Below, in pieces: positions 32,790 to 58,335 of a stretch of 64,000 nucleotides of DNA. This DNA is from Polymyxa betae A26-41 (Eukaryota > Protista > Endomyxa: Phytomyxea), in the NCBI GenBank assembly GCA_003693705.1, contig RBZT01000753.1:1-64000 (forward strand), given 5' to 3'. The first letter of the stretch is position 1. The number at the start of each line of letters is the position of its first letter. The notes below the pieces were generated by a model. It ran no database searches and had not been told where the DNA came from. It was given only the letters and a program-made list of their open reading frames with translations. A program made the position numbers and the translations under genes.

Positions 32790-33104
32790 CGCTCTTATTC
32801 GTATTTATTAACGGAAATGTCCCGGAAGACAATTCAAAATGTGTGCAGTATCCGCACTGATCAATCGATGTTTATTGATCAATAGAAACCCTAAACCCTA
32901 GATCTTAGATTCTAAGTAACGCTCTTCATTTTTGCTTCAAAGACGCGGGCTTCATGTGAACTATCTTCTGAATTCGTCGAAAAACAATCAAACGCATTTG
33001 TGCTCTGTTTGTATTTATAAACCGGCTTCAGCCTGATAACAGGTTGAAAAATTTGAGATTTTGAAACAGGGTTTGGTGGCCATAAGATCTTATCCAATTC
33101 GTAT

Positions 33105-33872
33105 TCAGAAGATGACACCAGCACGAACCATTTCGCAAGCGAACTGCAAAAAAGTTGACGATTTGAGCTCAAGAGCAGACGATTTCGATTACGTACCTTG
33201 GTCTCTGGGCAGGTGATGTTCGGCTTGCGTTTGACGACCTCATCGGGTCCCGGCTTGTGCCAACCCGTCTGCTGGGACGTCAGAATCGGGGCCCGGAATC
33301 TGTGCTGCGGTGCGAATCGTGGCCGACGGTTACGATAGCGATCTGCAGCCAGCGCTTTCTGGCTCTGATATTCGACCTGGATAACCATCAAATAATCATC
33401 AGATAACAAAAATAACTGTCGCTTTGCGAAACAGAAAATATGGATGGTGATACGCTTATTAAATTGTACGAGACTAACCAATGAAGACTCGGCTATCTGT
33501 CTTGCCTGGCCTTGAACATGCTCGACAGCTGCCTCCCAATCGTTACTGTCAATATCGGCCTGCAACAGATCGCTCGGTCAGGTTGGAGAACGAACAAAGG
33601 AGGTATGAACAGCGTACGCTGCCGTGGAGATGCTGCAAGAGGAGATCGATCTCAGCTGGAGATGGCTCCAGGCCATAGACAATGCACAACAGACGCCGGA
33701 TCGCGTCGTAATTGACCGGCAGACGACCATCAACAGAGAGCCGGTACGATCGGCGCACGGCGTCGAATGCCGGACGGAGACGGTCTGCGGGGACCTGGGC
33801 CAGGTTGACGGCCCGCAGGCTCTGCGACTGAAATGGGTTCTGCGGTCCCAGGCAGGTCAGCCCGAAAAACAT
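33105..33872 (-). CDS. TEX49/SPMIP11-like axonemal microtubule inner protein, multi-exon
   Basis: N-terminal MFFGLTCLGPQNPF and C-terminal PQHRFRAPILTSQQTGW...CPETK|FASEM resemble the TEX49/SPMIP11 family, recognised from memory. Confidence 0.6.
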
Positions 33873-39587: not shown

Positions 39588-42500
39588 GCATCGCCCTCGT
39601 TATTTAAATATATTTTATCCACACAATTTACTCAACATCGTTGGGGTATTCTCACCTTTACGGTATTGCGTTAACGTGGTCGCCGTTTAGAATTTATCAT
39701 GTGGTAGCTAGTGGTTGATGAGGGCAGCGTCCCGAAGAGACGATCTGAGCAACCATATCTCAATTGCTGATTTGTGATAATTGAATTTTAAAGTACATTT
39801 GAGCATCGTCGCTCACTCTGTCCCCTGCTGCAATGTTGGAGAGTTTGCGCCATCAGTTTTTCAAAACTTTGTTGCGACTGTATTCGGGAAAATTTTCTAG
39901 ACGCGACGCGTCCAGAGGCTGCTCCAAACGCGCGAAAAAATTTCCGCTAATCTACCTACGGGTATATACGGTATATCCGCAGGCCTCCTTAACCCTGATC
40001 CGAAAAATAAATTTTCACCATCCGTAAATAATTCTTTCATTAGGTTCTTCATTGAAATATTCTTCTTCTTCTTCACTGACATGTATTATAGTGTATAATA
40101 TACACTTTTACGGAGTTCGCAATTTTTGCCCCCAAATCGTTAAAGTTTATATTTTGCGGATATCTCACCCTTCCCACTATGGGTCCCCCGACCTGACGAC
40201 CCAGTCTATTGGCGACCTTGCTGAAATATCCGTAAACACAAGTAAGAAAGTGCGTTTCCAAAATTTGTTGCGATCTGAGTTAGTTTGCGAGTTTTTGCGG
40301 AAGGTTTGCGATTTGCTGTTAGGTTCCTATCTCTTTGTCTGGCAGTGACAGTGGACCATGTCCAGAACTGTCGCTAACCGACAATTCTCTCGCGAGCCTC
40401 ATGGCCCAAGTTCGTCAAATGTGAGAATCGATTCTCCGAACCCACCTTCGTGCAAACGAAATCAGACATCGAAATCGTACAAGTTGAATTCAAGCAATGG
40501 TGTATTGATTATTTATTGCATTAATAAAGCATCATCTCACTAGCAATAAATTATATTCAATCGAAAGCTAACATTAGAAATGCTAACAGAAAAAGCCTTG
40601 AAAAATATAATGGGCAAATTTTCGATGAAACCTTGTTACCGAAACCGGTGTGGCAGGCCTCGCAAGAGACATGAGGATGCTGCTGGCTTTGATATCGCGA
40701 TGCATAATGTGAATTTGTTGCAGCTAGATGAGATAGAAAAGCGTCCATAAGAGATGAATGTGAAGCCGACAGGATGGCGAAAATTCGAAATCGATTAGGG
40801 TGATTGATGAGAGAGTTTGCAGTCGAACTATTGGGTGAAAGCGATCCAACAATGAATACTGTCCATTAAGCACCTAAGCAAACTGAATATATAATTCCAA
40901 CAACTTCAGAGCCGTTAGTTTGGGTCTCGCTGAGAATGAGCATTTCGCTCGCCTGTCTGCCTATGCACTTCATCATTGTACGATCGATGCTGTCCATTGC
41001 TGCAAACTCTGGTGCCGTTATGGTTTGCTGACTCAGTTCCAGCTCCATTTTAAAAAGAAAAAACCATGCACTACTGTATTAAAAAAGTATTCGCAAGTTG
41101 CCGATAGCCAAACCGCTCGCCGAATTTGGCCGTATGGTTTAGATATACGTATATTGATATGGGTGGCGACCTGCGCTGTACATATGTTGACATATTTACG
41201 GGCTGAGCCTATAAATATGCGCACATATTTGGGTCGCAGGTCGCAGGTCCTCACAGTGCCACGGAAAAAGAATGGCGACCTGGACCGTTTATATTATACA
41301 CAGGAAAATTGTCAACTTTGATAAATTCTATAAATTCAACTATTAATCTAGAGTCGATGAAATTTTGCAACCATATCCGGAATGACCCAAACCCTAGCCC
41401 GCAAAAAAGTTTGCGTGAAATTCGTATTCTGGACCTCGTCATTGCTTGCTGCCTTTCCTGACTGTTTTAATGGCGTCCCTGGAAGAGTTTTTCGATACAT
41501 ACGATGATACATCGTTCAATAATGGAAAGGCGATACTGAGGATGATCCCATACAGTGGAATCACGCTCAGCTGCTCAAATAGGCCAATTTTTTGTCTTAA
41601 CGAAGTCGCTGGATGGATGTTTTACGACGACGCTGTTCGTGATTTTCCAGCCGTTTCAGCAATGCCGAGGTTTACCTTTGATTTTATTGTGAACTGTTTT
41701 TTACTTGCTAACCTGTTTAATGCCGTTCGAGAGAGGTTACCATCAAGTAACGTTACCAGCCCTAAACCTTAAACCCCAAAAATGACATGAGGCTATTTAC
41801 GGAGCGATCGCTTGCGCCTCAAAGTGAGCGAACACGACGGCAGCGAAACAGTCCAGAACAGGACTCTTCTGCACAATCGCAGTCTCGAACTCGATGTCAA
41901 AGAGCTCATTAAACACTGTTCTCTTATAGTGTATATTATGCACTATAAGGCATTTCCCCTGTTGTTGCGTGGCCCCACAAACCCTAAACCCTACCCCACG
42001 ATTGCGAAGGCTCCCTTTGAGCTATCATAAAAATTTTTACATAGACATGTAGATAATTACAGGAGCAGCATCAATATAGTATTGATTGGGGTTCATGAGC
42101 TTCCTCAGAGGTTTCACAAATCGTTGAAAACGAAAAGTGGATTTTTCCTTATATAATCAGGCCACTTTAAATAGTGTCCTTGTATGGGACGCTCACTAAA
42201 TAACACTAAATAAATTTTGTGGCGAGCGCTAAATAAGCGCAGCCCAGTCCGTGGCGCAGATAGGTTTTGCGTGTGTTTCCCTTTCCTTTTCGACGTTTTG
42301 GGTGGGGAAATCATCATCTTTCGGATATCAGATTCAGATATGGGTGGTTACAAGCAGGGCCCTGCTTTCAGCAAGGATCATTGCACTGAATTCGGTCTGA
42401 AAATCACTGCCAGAGATCCTGAAAGCCAGCGTGTTATTTCTGTTCGCTGTGAATTTTGTGTTTATTCTGGGAGGGAAGAAAATGTTGGTGGGAAACGCAA

Positions 42501-43013
42501 GCGGACCACCAACGTCAAGTACTTTGAAAAGTTTCGGCCGCAATACTATAAACAGCATCTCATGCTACAACATCAATCTGATTGGGAACAGTATCAGCTA
42601 TGTTCTGTTGAGGAGAAGCGACAATATTTCGAGGGCAAACAGAATCTTCAGAATACCCTTCTTCGACATTTCGAAAATGAAGATACGCTACGGTTCCATG
42701 TAAACTGTGATATCGTTGATGTTATCATCGGAGATCTCTTTAATCCTGACGATGATGAAGTTGCTATGTCTAGAGAAAGAGCTTTAACTTTCTTCAAACG
42801 ATCTGATTCCCAAGATCATCAGCATTCTCAAGATCAGAGTTATACGGTCGAGATTAAATCGACGAAGTTATTTCGACTATCTATTCGATTTGTGGCTTCT
42901 GGAGCGACCTTTCGAATGGCTTCCCGTTTGATTTCTGACACCAAAGACGAAACTGGCTTGAGCTTCCTTGCTGGCTGCAACGAAGGCCGTATTTCCCAAT
43001 TCGTTAAAGTTGT

Positions 43014-43557
43014 AGTTGAAAACCAGAGTGTCATTTTCAGAACTCAAACCAAAAAATGACACATTATAGGGTCTTATAACGTGTCAATTTAGAATTTATT
43101 CTCAAAAATGACGCATTAAAAGACCTTTTAATAATGTGTCATTTTTTGGTTTGAGTTCTGAAAATGACACTCTGGTTTTCTACTCTGGGGCGTGATTTTT
43201 GAGTTCAATTTTCAAAAATGACAACAGATTAATCCGTCCAGTCTCATAGATTAATCCCTCGTTGAAATCAGATTTAAAAAATGACAATATATTACTATGA
43301 TATTTATTTATAATAATCCTTATATTTTCGTGCCAGGCAAGCGTGCCAGGCAAACCCCCTTTCGTGCCAGGCAACCCCCCTAAAATGCCAGGCAAGAATT
43401 CCGAAAATCGGCGAAAAATGCCATTTTCCCATACAAAAATGACCTCGTGCCAGGCAAAGCGCTCGTGCCAGGCAAAATCAGCGAAATCGCACAGAATAAA
43501 AAAATTTTATATCACTTCCACGTATTCATCAAAATATTAATCAAAATAAACCCACCG
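43014..43557 (+). repeat. Left terminal inverted repeat (171-bp terminal hairpin 43014-43184; ~9 AAAATGAC motifs; 6 TGCCAGGCAA motifs)
   Basis: Reverse complement of 45369-45931 with scattered substitutions and one ~20-bp indel near 43260. Confidence 0.93.
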
Positions 43558-43617
43558 CGACATAGATATTATTACGTTATTTGAGGAAAATGTTGAAAAT
43601 GATAAAATGATTAAAAT

Positions 43618-43917
43618 ATGTCTATTAATATAACTGAATATGAGGATATGATATCAAATCATAATTGGATTAGCAGTATAAAAGTAATACATCCAGATGG
43701 GCACATTATAAAAGAAATAAAACCACGATTGGATTTCGATGAAGAATATATAAAAGAACGTGATAAAAAACTTGTTTCAAAGTATATCAAAAAATTAGAA
43801 TATTTCAGTAATCAAAGTTTAGATTTAGATTTATATAATATTCAGATATGTAATTCATTTAGAAAAACATTAATCAAAAATATAATAAACTTACGAATAG
43901 TTATAAATGGGAGTTAA
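43618..43917 (+). CDS. Virus-like hypothetical protein (99 aa), element cargo
   Basis: Intron-less, AT-rich, Ile/Lys/Asn-rich ORF preceded by TTACGTTATT at 43572. Confidence 0.55.
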   Translation: MSINITEYEDMISNHNWISSIKVIHPDGHIIKEIKPRLDFDEEYIKERDKKLVSKYIKKLEYFSNQSLDLDLYNIQICNSFRKTLIKNIINLRIVINGS

Positions 43918-43919
43918 AT

Positions 43920-44099
43920 ATGTACCAAGACACAAGAAAAGAACTTATAGATGAATTACAAAAATTTATAAGAGTTATTAATGAAATTAGAAAAGAAAAT
44001 TATTTAAATGTTCACAAACAAAAATATCAAAATAAGGAAAATGTTAAATTATTAAATTTAAATAATGATATAACAAATTTAATTAAATCATTCTTCTAA
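43920..44099 (+). CDS. Virus-like small protein (59 aa) ending LNNDITNLIKSFF; may be the frameshifted C-terminus of the previous ORF
   Basis: Translated by hand: MYQDTRKELIDELQKFIRVINEIRKENYLNVHKQKYQNKENVKLLNLNNDITNLIKSFF*. Confidence 0.5.
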   Translation: MYQDTRKELIDELQKFIRVINEIRKENYLNVHKQKYQNKENVKLLNLNNDITNLIKSFF

Positions 44100-44250
44100 A
44101 TAAGGAAAACGATGTTTTCAAAAATACAAAAAAACTGAATTTTTGAAAAAATCTTTAAATAAATAAATAGATTATATTACGTTATTCTACATATAGAAAT
44201 AAAACGGGGGGAAATATTTAAAATAAAAAAATACTTCAAAATAATAATTA

Positions 44251-44472
44251 ATGTTTAATAACAAAATTGCTCTTATTTTTGATGTTGGGGTAAATTTCTT
44301 TTTAGTAACCCGAAAGAATGAAGATTATGAAATTTCTGAAACGAGAAATCAGAAAAGACAAATCACACATTCAATTGATAAATCATTAAAAAAATTCTTC
44401 AAACAAGTAGGAGGGGAAATTGAAATTAATGATATTAATAATGCTTGTGATGATATATATATATATTATTAA
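44251..44472 (+). CDS. Virus-like hypothetical protein (73 aa), element cargo
   Basis: ATG ORF preceded by TTACGTTATT at 44177; followed immediately by a 35-aa ORF at 44475-44582. Confidence 0.45.
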   Translation: MFNNKIALIFDVGVNFFLVTRKNEDYEISETRNQKRQITHSIDKSLKKFFKQVGGEIEINDINNACDDIYIYY

Positions 44473-44717
44473 AAATGGGTGATAAGCGTGTAAAAGAAGT
44501 AAAAGATTTTAAATTTGATAATATTCTGATGCCGAAGAGAATACATGTAGCATTACTCCAATTAAAAGAATTCAGTGTTTAGCGAAAAACAAGGAAAAAT
44601 ATATTAATTCTAAAACCTTAATTTTACGTTATTTACGGAAAATATTTAATTGAAAATATTGTGTCATATTTTTGAAAAAATTAATATTGTTAGAAATAAA
44701 AATATTGTATTATTATT

Positions 44718-44788
44718 GTGATTGTAGTTAAATGGTATAATATTGGTTTGTGGCGCCAATGTTCTGGGTTCAATTCCCAGCAATCACA
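44718..44788 (+). tRNA. tRNA-His (anticodon GUG) inside the TIR element
   Basis: Acceptor GTGATTG/CAATCAC, D-stem GTTA/TAAT with TGG loop, anticodon stem TTGGT/GCCAA with loop TT-GTG-GC (44750-44752), T-arm CTGGG-TTCAATT-CCCAG, discriminator A, then TTTT. Confidence 0.92.
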
Positions 44789-44868
44789 TTTTAAATAATT
44801 TTTAGGGAGGTTGTGGTGATTATTGTTATTGTTATTTTGAATTAAATTTGAGTTGAAATAAAATTTTC

Positions 44869-45207
44869 TCAAATTTGTAACATACATATAATTTCATTTT
44901 TAATATCATTAGGCAAATTCATATTTTTCATCTGTTTAGAATAATATTTTTTCTTAAATTGTTTCTGTATTTTGATTATGGAATTCAAGGTGTTATCATA
45001 TATTTTTTGTGTAATTTTATGTTTATGTTTCCAATATGTTATTTTAAAGTTTCGAATGCCAAGATAATCCTCCCATAATCCACCTGCTATACCAAACCAA
45101 TAGTAATCAAATACATAACTCATTATTCGTTTTTCAATACAATTATCTATATCACAATCATCGGGAAAAGACCTTGATTTATGTTTTTGACAAAGATAGA
45201 ACGCCAT
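44869..45207 (-). CDS. Virus-like protein (112 aa) with IQ-like segment and C-terminal LPNDIKNEIICML motif
   Basis: Intron-less ATG ORF; IIKIQKQFKKKYY is IQ-like; the terminal LPxDIxxxI motif is F-box/cullin-box-like. Confidence 0.6.
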   Translation of the reverse strand: MAFYLCQKHKSRSFPDDCDIDNCIEKRIMSYVFDYYWFGIAGGLWEDYLGIRNFKITYWKHKHKITQKIYDNTLNSIIKIQKQFKKKYYSKQMKNMNLPNDIKNEIICMLQI

Positions 45208-45368
45208 TTAATGTAAGTATCTATTTATATTTTAAATATTTAAATTAAAATAATGTATTATAGTAATTATGATAATGAATAAATTAAATACAAATACATA
45301 TATCCTTGAATGACGCCATGGGTTCAATTCTGGGTCCATGAACATTATCCATTTAATTCATGGTGTGT

Positions 45369-45931
45369 CGGTGGGTTTATTTTGATTGATATTTTGATGA
45401 ATACGTGGAAGTGATATAAAATTTTTTTATTCTGTGCGATTTCGCTGATTTTGCCTGGCACGAGCGCTTGCCTGGCACGAGGTCATTTTTGTATGGGAAA
45501 ATGGCATTTTTCGCCGATTTTCGGAATTCTTGCCTGGCATTATAGGGGGGTTGCCTGGCACGAAAGGGGGTTTGCCTGGCACGCTTGCCTGGCACGAAAA
45601 TATAAGGATTATTATAAATAAATATCATAGTAATATATTGTCATTTTTTAAATCTGATTTCAAAAATTACAAATGACGGATTGAGAGGGATTAATCTATG
45701 AGACTGGACGGATTAATCTGTTGTCATTTTTGAAAATTGAATTCAAAAATCACGCCCAGAGTAGAAAACCAGAGTGTCATTTCCAGAACTCAAACCAAAA
45801 AATGACACATTATTAAAAGGTCTTTTAATGCGTCATTTTTGAGAACAAATTCTAAAAATGACACGTTATATGACCCTATAATGTGTCATTTTTTGGTTTG
45901 AGTTCTGAAAATGACACTCTGGTTTTGTACT
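45369..45931 (-). repeat. Right terminal inverted repeat (terminal hairpin 45760-45931)
   Basis: Mirror copy of 43014-43557; the ORF track gives near-identical peptides on opposite strands (43343-43540 + and 45377-45628 -). Confidence 0.93.
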
Positions 45932-47155
45932 AGTTGTTGTTGCTGTCAATCATCAGAAGCTCTACGAAATTCTAAAAAGACAATGGGCATTCTCGATTGC
46001 TCTTGACGCCGGAAATAGCAGCTGGAGCAATTATTTCGACATCCGCATAAGATTCTACGAGCAGAACCAGCTCTTCAACATGCACTTTTTGGCACTCCCG
46101 ATGCACGCAAGGAAGACGACAGAAAATTTGTTTGAAGTGTCCTCAAAGGCATTAGACGTTGTTGCGCCTGAATGGCGAAAGAAGTTGATTGGTATAAGCA
46201 CAGATGGGGAAAATACCATGACTGGACGTTTTCGAGGCGTTGCGACTCGATTTCAGAATGCTGTGGAAGGGAACGATATCTGGCGAGTTTGGTGTGCTCT
46301 CCATCAAGTGGATTTAGTCGTTCAAGAACAATACAAGTGTCTTCTAGATGGAAACTTCTTGGACGTTTTAATCAGTTTAATCGGCTACCTCCGACGACAG
46401 CAAAATCTGATTGCGGAAATGGGTACAACATGCCCAAAACTGATGCTGACCCGCTGGGCGCACATGCATCGATCCACTTAATGGTTTGTTGATCATCGCA
46501 TCTCGGTGCTAGATTATCTAGCTCTAAAAAAGTCTGCATGCACGCCCAGTAATTCATGGTAAATCGATCCCTTTACCGATACAATTTTTTAAATTTCTTT
46601 AGGTGGATTGTTTTGCACGCCTTGAATCGTGTTACAAAAGTTGTTCTCGCGACTGTTACCCGCCTTCAAGGCATGGCGACTTTGATATTACAGCAAAGTC
46701 GACAGATTCAGGAGCTAGGTGTGAAGGTCTGTGAATTGTGCCCAGTGGAAGGCCCTCTTTCTTTTCAAGAAGCTTTGGAAACATCTCAGCATGATTGCGG
46801 TTTTGTTATTGTGGGAGCACACCGTGTGGATGTTAAAGATTCGCAGGCGTTTGTTGAAGACCTTGGCTCTCACGTGATGGAATCCATGCGCCAGTTGCCT
46901 TCTAACGAGGTCCAAGTAATTGCATTGTCCGTTGCCAGATTATTCGCTGGTGTCGTCGATGGTGTGGCTAATGTTGTCTCCGAAAGAGACGCTGCAAATG
47001 ATCCTTCACATCAGAAACTACCACCAGTCACCCCGCCTGAGCTCGTTAAGCTACGAGGATCAGAATTCGGAAATATCATTATCCAAATGAAACCGCGCTT
47101 GAGGCGGAACGGAATGTCTGATGTTGATATCCAGAGGCGGAGGTGACGGTTTTCC

Positions 47156-47944
47156 TCACTCCGGACATAGAGGCGATCTGTCCGGAGTGAGAAAAACCGT
47201 CACCGCGTCAAAATCGATGTCCCTCGTCGAAAGGTATTGTCGAATGCGGTCTATGTCGCCTTGAGAGAATCCGTTCTCGCGCAACAACTTCTCGTTCAAT
47301 TCAATAACGTACAGGTTTATAGGATGTGAATCGCATAACGTCTCCGTGCCCATAAACTCCTCCTGCCTTAACTCGAAGGAATCCTCTTCCAATGCGGCAT
47401 TGGTGTGCTCTTTGTCGAGTAATGTGAGAAGGAGATTCACATTGCGAGTTTCGAGTAAGCACATGACGCTAGGTAACTAGTCGAGTGGAACGTAATCCAG
47501 GAGGAACTTTAGCAGGTGAGTTAGTTGTAATATGGTCACGAGCTTTAGCAGCACATTTGTTCTGATGCAGAAGCGCCAATCAATGATCAAAGTGAGAGTG
47601 TCACCGGATAGGACGGACTTGAGGCAGCGCCTGAGCGCGTTGGAACAGGGTTCCCTAAGGTTAGACGATGAAAGCGCCTGTTCTGCCGAAACCGCTATGG
47701 ACAGGACCTCCTCCACGGACGGGTCCGATTTGTCCCCATTCCATTTCCAGAAATCATCTCGGATTTCAGTCAGGATGGGATTGTCACAGGCCCTTTCGAA
47801 GTCACGCGGTCCATATATAACAGCACCATATGGCGTATCGAAGATAAGAGCAGATCCAACCGCACTCATATCTATAATCCCACCCTGGGTCACTTCACCA
47901 CCAAATCCCAATTCATCCCACTCACACTGTCACACACCGTCCAT
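47156..47944 (-). pseudogene. Intron-less unknown ORF with two in-frame stops
   Basis: ATG at 47944, a TGA four codons later and a TAG at 47477-47479; ORFs 47477-47911 and 47156-47464 share one frame; the 3' end runs into a fold-back hairpin. Confidence 0.5.
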
Positions 47945-57629: not shown

Positions 57630-58335
57630 TGAAGTGACGAACGCTTACCCTGAATTGAGCGAAATTCTGGGCAAGGATTACATTGCAGGAATGGTACAAG
57701 TCTCTACTGCTCCAGCCCTCCCCAAGCCAAAACCGGGAGAATATCGCCCGATCAGCCTGCTTTCGAATCACCGAGTTCATAATACAAACTCGAATCCGAG
57801 ACATAATCAACAAAAAACTGCCACGAAACCAGTTCGAATGCCGTACAGGACACTCAACCTCACACGCTCTCATACGCCTAATACACTACTGCGGTACAAG
57901 CGCGGCCAAAAATGAACAATTCGGATGCATATTTCACGATTTCACAAAAGCGTATGACAGAGTTCCTAAACACATATTAGTCAAAAAAATGATAAAATTT
58001 GGCATCCCACCTCAACTAATACTGATAATTTATGACTGGTTATGCTAAAGAACTTTCAAGGTAATACATAAAAACGCCCTATCTCAAATCCGAGAACAAA
58101 AAAACGGCGTCCCTCAAGGATCCAGCCTCAGTGGTCTACTATGGCTAATATTCGTATACGATATGCCGCTCCCAGCAACCAATTCGAATATTTACGTAGA
58201 CGACACAGTTGGCTGGGTTTCTGCGCCCACAAAAGACGAAGTTACAGAAGGTTTAACACCACAACTCCTAGATATGGAAGCATGGTGTCTACAGAACAAA
58301 ATCAACACCGATAAAACTTGCGTAATGTTTCAACG
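57630..58335 (+). mobile_element. Non-LTR retrotransposon reverse transcriptase remnant
   Basis: YRPISLLS, DFTKAYDRV, GVPQGSSLS and YVDD, with frameshifts and stops. Confidence 0.9.

Follow-up and report, generated by a model that had tools for sequence, protein, structure and literature searches.

The window analyzed here, 64,000 nucleotides of Polymyxa betae A26-41 DNA (contig RBZT01000753.1, positions 1 to 64,000), contains a short AT-rich element that lies inside a transposase-like gene, has terminal inverted repeats (TIRs) as its boundaries and carries a gene for tRNA-His. As the original prediction from the sequence had stated, the element is an insert of 2,918 bp (positions 43014-45931) with AG...CT at its ends and AGTTGT on both sides (43008-43013 and 45932-45937, forward strand); flank lengths of 2-11 were tried, and only 6 gives a match. 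When the insert and one AGTTGT are taken out, the flanking reading frame is open again. The search for empty sites suggested at the time was successful: X1 and X2, public runs from two studies, each contain a single contig from which exactly 2,924 bases are missing; 6 letters can be assigned to either side, and AGTTGT is present in a single copy. The insertion is real and polymorphic, and its boundaries are established to within one base. None of the contigs listed spans the filled junction, whose confirmation had also been proposed, so that the evidence for the filled allele is the assembly. No second copy of the element occurs within the 64-kb window.

The TIRs, predicted at about 550 bp, measure 549 bp on the left (43014-43562, forward strand) and 568 bp on the right (45364-45931, reverse strand), the right one being 20 nt longer internally. 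They align at 94.5% identity over 560 columns, 23 of which are gaps, and differ at 8 of the 537 aligned bases. At both ends of the element a palindrome directly adjoins the target site duplication (TSD): the left one is 171 bp long (43014-43184, forward strand), with 54-bp arms that are 98% complementary around a 63-bp spacer, and the right TIR has its own at 45760-45931. The DNA fold of positions 43014-43290 has a z-score of -15.3, with none of 200 shuffles equally stable. The spacers of the two palindromes share their orientation, so this copy displays no flip-flop. Four palindromic units of the form TGTCATTTT-N12-16-AAAATGAC lie about 54 bp apart at 43029-43222 (forward strand), the fourth being degenerate, and are mirrored in the right TIR. 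This pattern has 8 matches with both strands counted, all of them in the TIRs, against a shuffle mean of 0, and we regard the units as candidate protein-binding sites. The inner part of the left TIR contains six copies of TGCCAGGCA (43331-43474, forward strand), with six more mirrored at 45452-45594. Rfam microRNA matches were all below the gathering score and were rejected as reflecting the hairpin. A second B-box-like word (45321), at which no tRNA was called, lies in a stable hairpin within 45310-45365, on the inner side of the right TIR; an X1 contig has 32 additional letters with a T run at 45334-45336. The terminal bases 43014-43021 are replaced by 8 differing letters in one contig in X1 and X2, which may mean that the end varies or that the copy is truncated.

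Between the TIRs lies a core of 1,801 bp with 22.3% GC, much more AT-rich than the flanks (42% and 46%), as had been noticed before, and the element is the only region of the window below 33% GC in 400-bp windows. Including ORF5, 72% of the core is coding or tRNA, without introns. The GC content at third codon positions is 0.12-0.22 in the element genes versus 0.42-0.50 in five host frames. The intron-less small open reading frames (ORFs) of the original prediction, with 112, 99, 73 and 59 amino acids (aa), exceed the number expected by chance: at least two ORFs of at least 99 aa, or at least four of at least 59 aa, were found in none of 1000 dinucleotide shuffles. On the forward strand are three orphans, namely ORF1 (99 aa; 43618-43917), ORF2 (59 aa; 43920-44099, with its frame open from 43863) and ORF3 (73 aa; 44251-44472), together with ORF5 (44475-44653), which is split across two frames here. 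The mostly helical ORF4 (112 aa; 44869-45207), missing in some copies, is on the reverse strand. Contigs of X1 and X2 have one extra base at 43873-43875 and another near 44523. By frame arithmetic the former would join ORF1 and ORF2, which are probably one gene of about 160 aa in other copies, and the latter would make ORF5 a single frame of about 59 aa. The present copy is either decaying or bears two assembly errors.

The predicted tRNA gene is located at 44718-44792 on the forward strand (38% GC, including TTTT at 44789-44792) and was identified as tRNA-His(GUG) both by ARAGORN (44717-44789) and by Rfam RF00005 (66.9 bits; gathering score 29). It folds fully and has A- and B-box matches and A73, with TTTT following and neither G-1 nor CCA encoded, features by which we take it to be a nuclear-type tRNA-His. 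The only candidate for a second tRNA in the element was an intron-bearing artefact at a relaxed score. Two phage-like contigs considered as tRNA relatives were rejected, since they share only the D-loop and anticodon arm and a tighter pattern gave 0 matches; a blastn search of the tRNA against phages returned no match. A common motif, TTACGTTATT, precedes three of the genes on the forward strand: about 45 nt before ORF1 (43572-43581), about 73 nt before ORF3 (44177-44186) and about 92 nt before the tRNA (44624-44633). A copy with one mismatch, TACATTATT, lies about 50 nt before ORF4 on the reverse strand (45249-45257), and the rest of the window has no further TTACGTTATT. In 11 of 5000 shuffles, three or more of the six starts had a 9-mer containing at least two G/C upstream of them.

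As expected from the original prediction, no integrase, polymerase or capsid gene was recognized. No element frame scanned matched Pfam at E<=0.001, PHROG matches of the element frames were weak (E of at least 0.0018), and no helicase match was found in the element. With the longest core ORF at 112 aa and free of Pfam matches, the protein-primed PolB and rve integrase genes of Polintons are absent from the core, and no ORF is long enough for, or has a Pfam match to, a major capsid protein or packaging ATPase. ORF4 has three metagenomic relatives with 48-53% identity (P0001, P0002 and P0004), each a singleton on an ENA contig, these contigs being 5.3, 10.8 and 0.9 kb long. The exhaustive HMMER search was carried out for ORF4 alone; the word-indexed homolog search covered ORF4 and ORF1 and found none for either. 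A fourth ORF4 match (P0003), a repeat protein, was discarded as spurious, leaving three of four. A weak 39-aa match to ORF4 in a Gracilibacteria contig (L003) was attributed to chance, as it falls in an unrelated frame and the contig has no TIRs or tRNA. The ORF4 profile search retrieved its own three members only, ORF4 had no match in phages and no accepted alignment to viral or metagenome contigs, and no loci of ORF1, ORF3 or ORF4 were found in viral contigs. The nearest Atlas clusters of ORF4 are all viral, mostly Nucleocytoviricota, with scores of 0.82-0.84, and two of the three nearest have IQ motifs in a minority of their members; we treat these neighbours as a lead only. ORF1 had no usable Atlas match. 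Predicted folds, with pLDDT of 47 and 48 and no BFVD match at E<=0.001, were uninformative.

Read data indicate that the sequenced copy does not stand alone. In X1, the same run that has the empty site, all 30 bins of the element are covered, with depths of 236-1134 in the core bins and of 8776 and 4692 in the terminal bins versus about 260 over the empty-site flank, depth here not being equal to copy number. The same run contains an identical 537-bp contig that extends from the tRNA end across ORF4 (44777-45313). Positions 44296-44735 are present in X6, which like X3 is from organism B; the pieces from these two runs are near-identical and of low depth. Other contigs differ from it. Joints from 44849/44851 to 45235 leave out ORF4, divergent ORF4 contigs have 40-41 differences over about 305-320 bases, opposite-strand joints connect 44203 or 44803 to the inner TIR edge, and joints near 43132/45812 imply palindromic mini forms of about 240 bp. 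In X2 and X3, loose ends, the longest of 255 letters, accumulate between ORF2 and ORF3 (44109-44186). The element is one of several variants with common ends.

The interrupted host gene consists of a transposase-like 5' part (42340-43013, forward strand) and a 3' continuation (45938-46481, forward strand) that is in frame once the insert is removed. The original prediction held that excision restores a hAT frame; the frame does reopen, but the label was returned by neither Pfam nor PDB, in which the gene has no match, and it depends on a CxxH motif and candidate catalytic aspartates that we presume to be typical of hAT. The host frame had no match in plasmids either. Positions 42000-42667, in the 5' part, are multi-copy in X1 and X2, with an X1 depth of 736-2095 compared with about 260 around the insertion site, and loose ends occur at 42139, 42193 and 42238, which may be read as a transposon family with internally deleted members. 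The stop at 46479 that closes the reopened frame is another base in X1 and X2, and the empty allele may be less damaged. Where the transposase-like frame ends (47146), an inverted repeat of 26 bp (96%) around an 11-bp spacer at 47142-47204 could be the trace of a further insertion or a hairpin element of small size. Upstream of the host gene there are short repeats, both inverted and direct (41166-41244 and 40078-40118/41924-41956), which are possibly other small transposon ends. The remainder of the window is eukaryotic host DNA, with eIF2B-epsilon, RhoGAP, GAF kinase, Rad21, lipase and aldehyde dehydrogenase among its 117 frames, plus a reverse transcriptase fragment at 57659-58045 (PF00078, E 4e-10). 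A weak match to PF22593 (sperm microtubule inner proteins) at 32915-33577, below the cut-off, hints at a flagellated host.

On balance, we lean towards reading the element as a non-autonomous mini-derivative of a hairpin-ended virophage or Polinton-like virus (PLV) that was inserted in trans by the rve integrase of such a virus. No gene in the element could move it, and a helper is therefore required. The palindromic units and TGCCAGGCA repeats would bind helper proteins, and the 171-bp end palindrome would fold back and prime copying, a step that for Halocafeteria virophages is likewise only proposed. The helper integrase would then create the 6-bp duplication. Transcription of the protein genes may start from the common TTACGTTATT motif, and that of the tRNA may depend on RNA polymerase III, which might provide tRNA-His while the helper or a giant virus infects the cell; genes would be gained and lost as cassettes between fixed ends. 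The original prediction of a satellite mobilized in trans finds support in the palindromes, the tRNA-His, the upstream motif, the conserved ORF4 and the variable family; the part of it that did not materialize is the helper.

Several results weigh against this reading. In the public viral and metagenome contig sets searched, we saw no helper or long copy: the TIR patterns had 0 matches in viral and metagenome contigs, and the long copies with the same ends and pPolB, rve integrase, ATPase or major capsid protein genes that the original prediction had hoped for did not appear. Among the 117 window frames, there were no rve, pPolB or capsid Pfam matches. The three relatives of ORF4 come without genomic context. 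Purifying selection is not visible in ORF1, for which 9 of the 12 listed differences are on codon positions 1-2, a tally taken among the 40 of 163 entries listed and of a kind that fits neutral change. The bare repetition of the TTACGTTATT 10-mer is weak (reached in 191 of 2000 shuffles), and hairpins at gene ends do not reach significance (22 of 200 shuffles). The mimivirus early motif is found within 100 nt of none of the six starts, and the late motif only before ORF4, with one mismatch and in AT-rich DNA. The insert ends lack the (AGT)2 or (AG)3 motif of vertebrate Mavericks. The TSD length is known from one copy, which fits 6 or 4 bp, and internally repetitive TIRs, like mini forms, equally characterize cut-and-paste transposons of the foldback type.

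The last two points lead to an explanation that we consider unlikely, in which the element is a non-autonomous cut-and-paste transposon, Academ-like or foldback-type, that acquired viral DNA by Pack-like capture and is moved by a host transposase. Academ transposons have TAG...CTA ends and a 3-4-bp TSD. Since AGTTGT starts with A and ends with T, boundaries at 43013-45932, with TAG...CTA ends and a 4-bp GTTG duplication (43009-43012 on the left), spell the same letters and yield an identical empty site. The boundaries had been called firm, which is stronger than these two fits allow, and the letters agree with the predicted 6-bp TSD and AG/CT ends as well as with the 4-bp alternative. Each TIR, however, repeats the end motif in mirror image 171 bp further in (the termini read AGTTGA and AGTACA, the inner mirrors AGTAGA), and because the mirror begins exactly at AG and is preceded on both sides by G, not T, AG...CT ends with a 6-bp duplication are favored. 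The TIRs as arrays of short repeats, the high X1 terminal depth (with the caveat on copy number given above) and the mini forms, which resemble MITEs (inverted-repeat transposons of miniature size), would suit a cut-and-paste transposon. Its cargo would be unusual, since the genes are complete and come with a motif of their own and a tRNA, and full-gene capture of the Pack type has been called exceptionally rare. A palindrome next to a TSD has viral precedent.

We also doubt that a full-length virophage or PLV integrated here by its own integrase and then lost its middle, leaving a one-off remnant, with the variant contigs representing ends of long elements. The genes pointing inward from both TIRs, the loose ends at 44109-44186, where longer versions could hold more genes, and the two frameshifts, which suggest decay, are consistent with such a history, and truncation has precedents in EMALE type 8 and in the fragments of Halocafeteria. 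The few TIR differences and the polymorphic site leave little time for it, and much of the short order recurs elsewhere in the X1 and X6 pieces described above, although neither covers 44099-44251. Far less probable still is a linear episome (transpoviron-like, a cryptic virus-like element (VLE) or an organellar plasmid) that entered the chromosome through host repair, or a chimera of the assembly. AT-richness, TIR boundaries and helper dependence are likewise found in transpovirons and cryptic yeast VLEs, and the lack of a listed contig across the filled junction would be expected of a chimera. The clean duplication, the two intact ends and the exact empty allele point instead to an integrase. 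An episome is further disfavored by the absence of helicase and polymerase genes and by a tRNA presumably of nuclear type, and the TGA at which ORF4 stops, close to the end points of its relatives, speaks against an organellar code.

If the helper of the proposed virophage or PLV derivative is found, the ends alone suffice for integration, and the element provides a natural minimal substrate for the hairpin-priming model left open by the Halocafeteria preprint. The recurring tRNA-His of PLVs would be cargo retained when all else was lost, and the element would point to an undescribed virophage or PLV, perhaps also a giant virus, in this host. More speculatively, the variants could belong to a lasting family of 0.2-3-kb integrating satellites of hairpin-ended virophages and PLVs, with fixed ends, exchangeable cassettes and one promoter motif. 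The cassettes of such a family might, again tentatively, comprise tRNA-His and giant-virus-like small genes, with no capsid, integrase or polymerase. If true, these satellites would be a chromosomal counterpart of transpovirons and would add a fourth layer to the systems formed by host, giant virus and virophage, hidden from capsid-based surveys. Such surveys of endogenous virophages and PLVs take capsid genes as their starting point, and one in cryptophytes kept 6-80-kb elements only (PMC12220804), so that a capsid-less unit of 2.9 kb is missed by design. A cut-and-paste element with captured viral DNA would be a curiosity of moderate interest.

In Halocafeteria seosinensis, virophage subtypes 1, 2, 5 and 6 and PLV subtype 4 have palindromes in the TIR by the TSD; these are tied to RVE integrases and to replication other than by pPolB, for which a hairpin-priming model was proposed (10.64898/2026.07.28.741278). 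Fragmented copies keep their TIRs and TSDs and may depend on complete ones, the TIRs of PLVs have a mean length of 485 bp, and the AT content of PLVs exceeds that of the host (10.64898/2026.07.28.741278). Our element shares with this type the palindrome position, TIRs of about 0.5-0.8 kb, a GC content below that of the host and, as in the fragments, the lack of core genes. It is unlike them in that complete Halocafeteria elements are 23-25 kb long with capsid, replication and integrase genes, the palindrome there has 52 nt and here 171 nt, the fragments were found through structural genes, and the main text mentions no tRNA. Among cryptophyte PLVs, 8 of 10 tRNAs called by ARAGORN are tRNA-His, 7 of them in R. 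lacustris, all in cluster C3, in which rve-INT is present in 260 and TSDs are present in 179 of the 305 elements, rve-INT going with 6-bp TSDs (PMC12220804). The C3 (GKS1) PLVs and the element have in common the tRNA-His cargo, a TSD that here is probably also of 6 bp, long TIRs and a GC offset from the host (PMC12220804); those PLVs, unlike the element, are about 22 kb long with a major capsid protein and mostly rve-INT, the tRNAs being compared here by type and not by sequence. EMALE type 8 of Cafeteria burkhardae is likewise truncated, TIR-bounded and without morphogenesis genes, but complete EMALEs are 5.5-21.5 kb and of mavirus descent, in contrast to 2.9 kb, no recognizable virophage gene and a tRNA here (PMC8547959).

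The probable 6-bp TSD, the likely AG(T)...(A)CT termini, TIR lengths of about 400-580 bp and intron-less genes are reminiscent of Polintons/Mavericks, from which the element differs in having no pPolB, integrase, ATPase, protease or capsid gene and one-sixth of the size (PMC8097293, PMC3014272). Its ends lack an (AGT)2 or (AG)3 repeat and are hairpins instead of the kind typical of protein priming. Non-autonomous Polintons have been reported absent in Anolis. Of the Polinton hallmarks invoked by the original prediction, the TIRs of several hundred bp are present, but the (AGT)2 ends are not, the TSD may be 6 or 4 bp, and 2,918 bp falls short of a Polinton length of 15-20 kb. Traits of PLVs and virophages found here are an AT-rich, gene-dense, intron-less unit between TIRs and a palindrome in the TIR by the TSD. 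The transpovirons of Mimiviridae are also small, AT-rich, TIR-bounded, capsid-less and helper-dependent (PMC11464507, PMC7031253), but are 7-kb episomes in virions and have a helicase (PMC5499653), whereas this element is chromosomal with a TSD, lacks a helicase and shows no early motif of mimiviruses in front of its genes. Pack-MULE, foldback and Academ elements similarly combine the absence of a mobility gene with repeat-rich TIRs, variable cores and MITE-sized derivatives; they differ in carrying host gene fragments rather than whole virus-like genes and a tRNA, and no partner transposase was seen here. As the defining gene tests of Polintons, PLVs, virophages and transpovirons all failed, we place the element in none of these groups. 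The original prediction knew of no described family with this layout. Truncated virophage and PLV forms with TIRs and TSDs have in fact been reported, while a gene-free, tRNA-bearing mini-element of 2.9 kb was not found in the literature searched, which consisted mostly of open papers, without Repbase or supplements. The element works like the non-autonomous ends of Polintons, PLVs, virophages and transpovirons. Among the truncated forms already known are EMALE type 8 and the Halocafeteria fragments, and the shortest complete EMALE has 5.5 kb.

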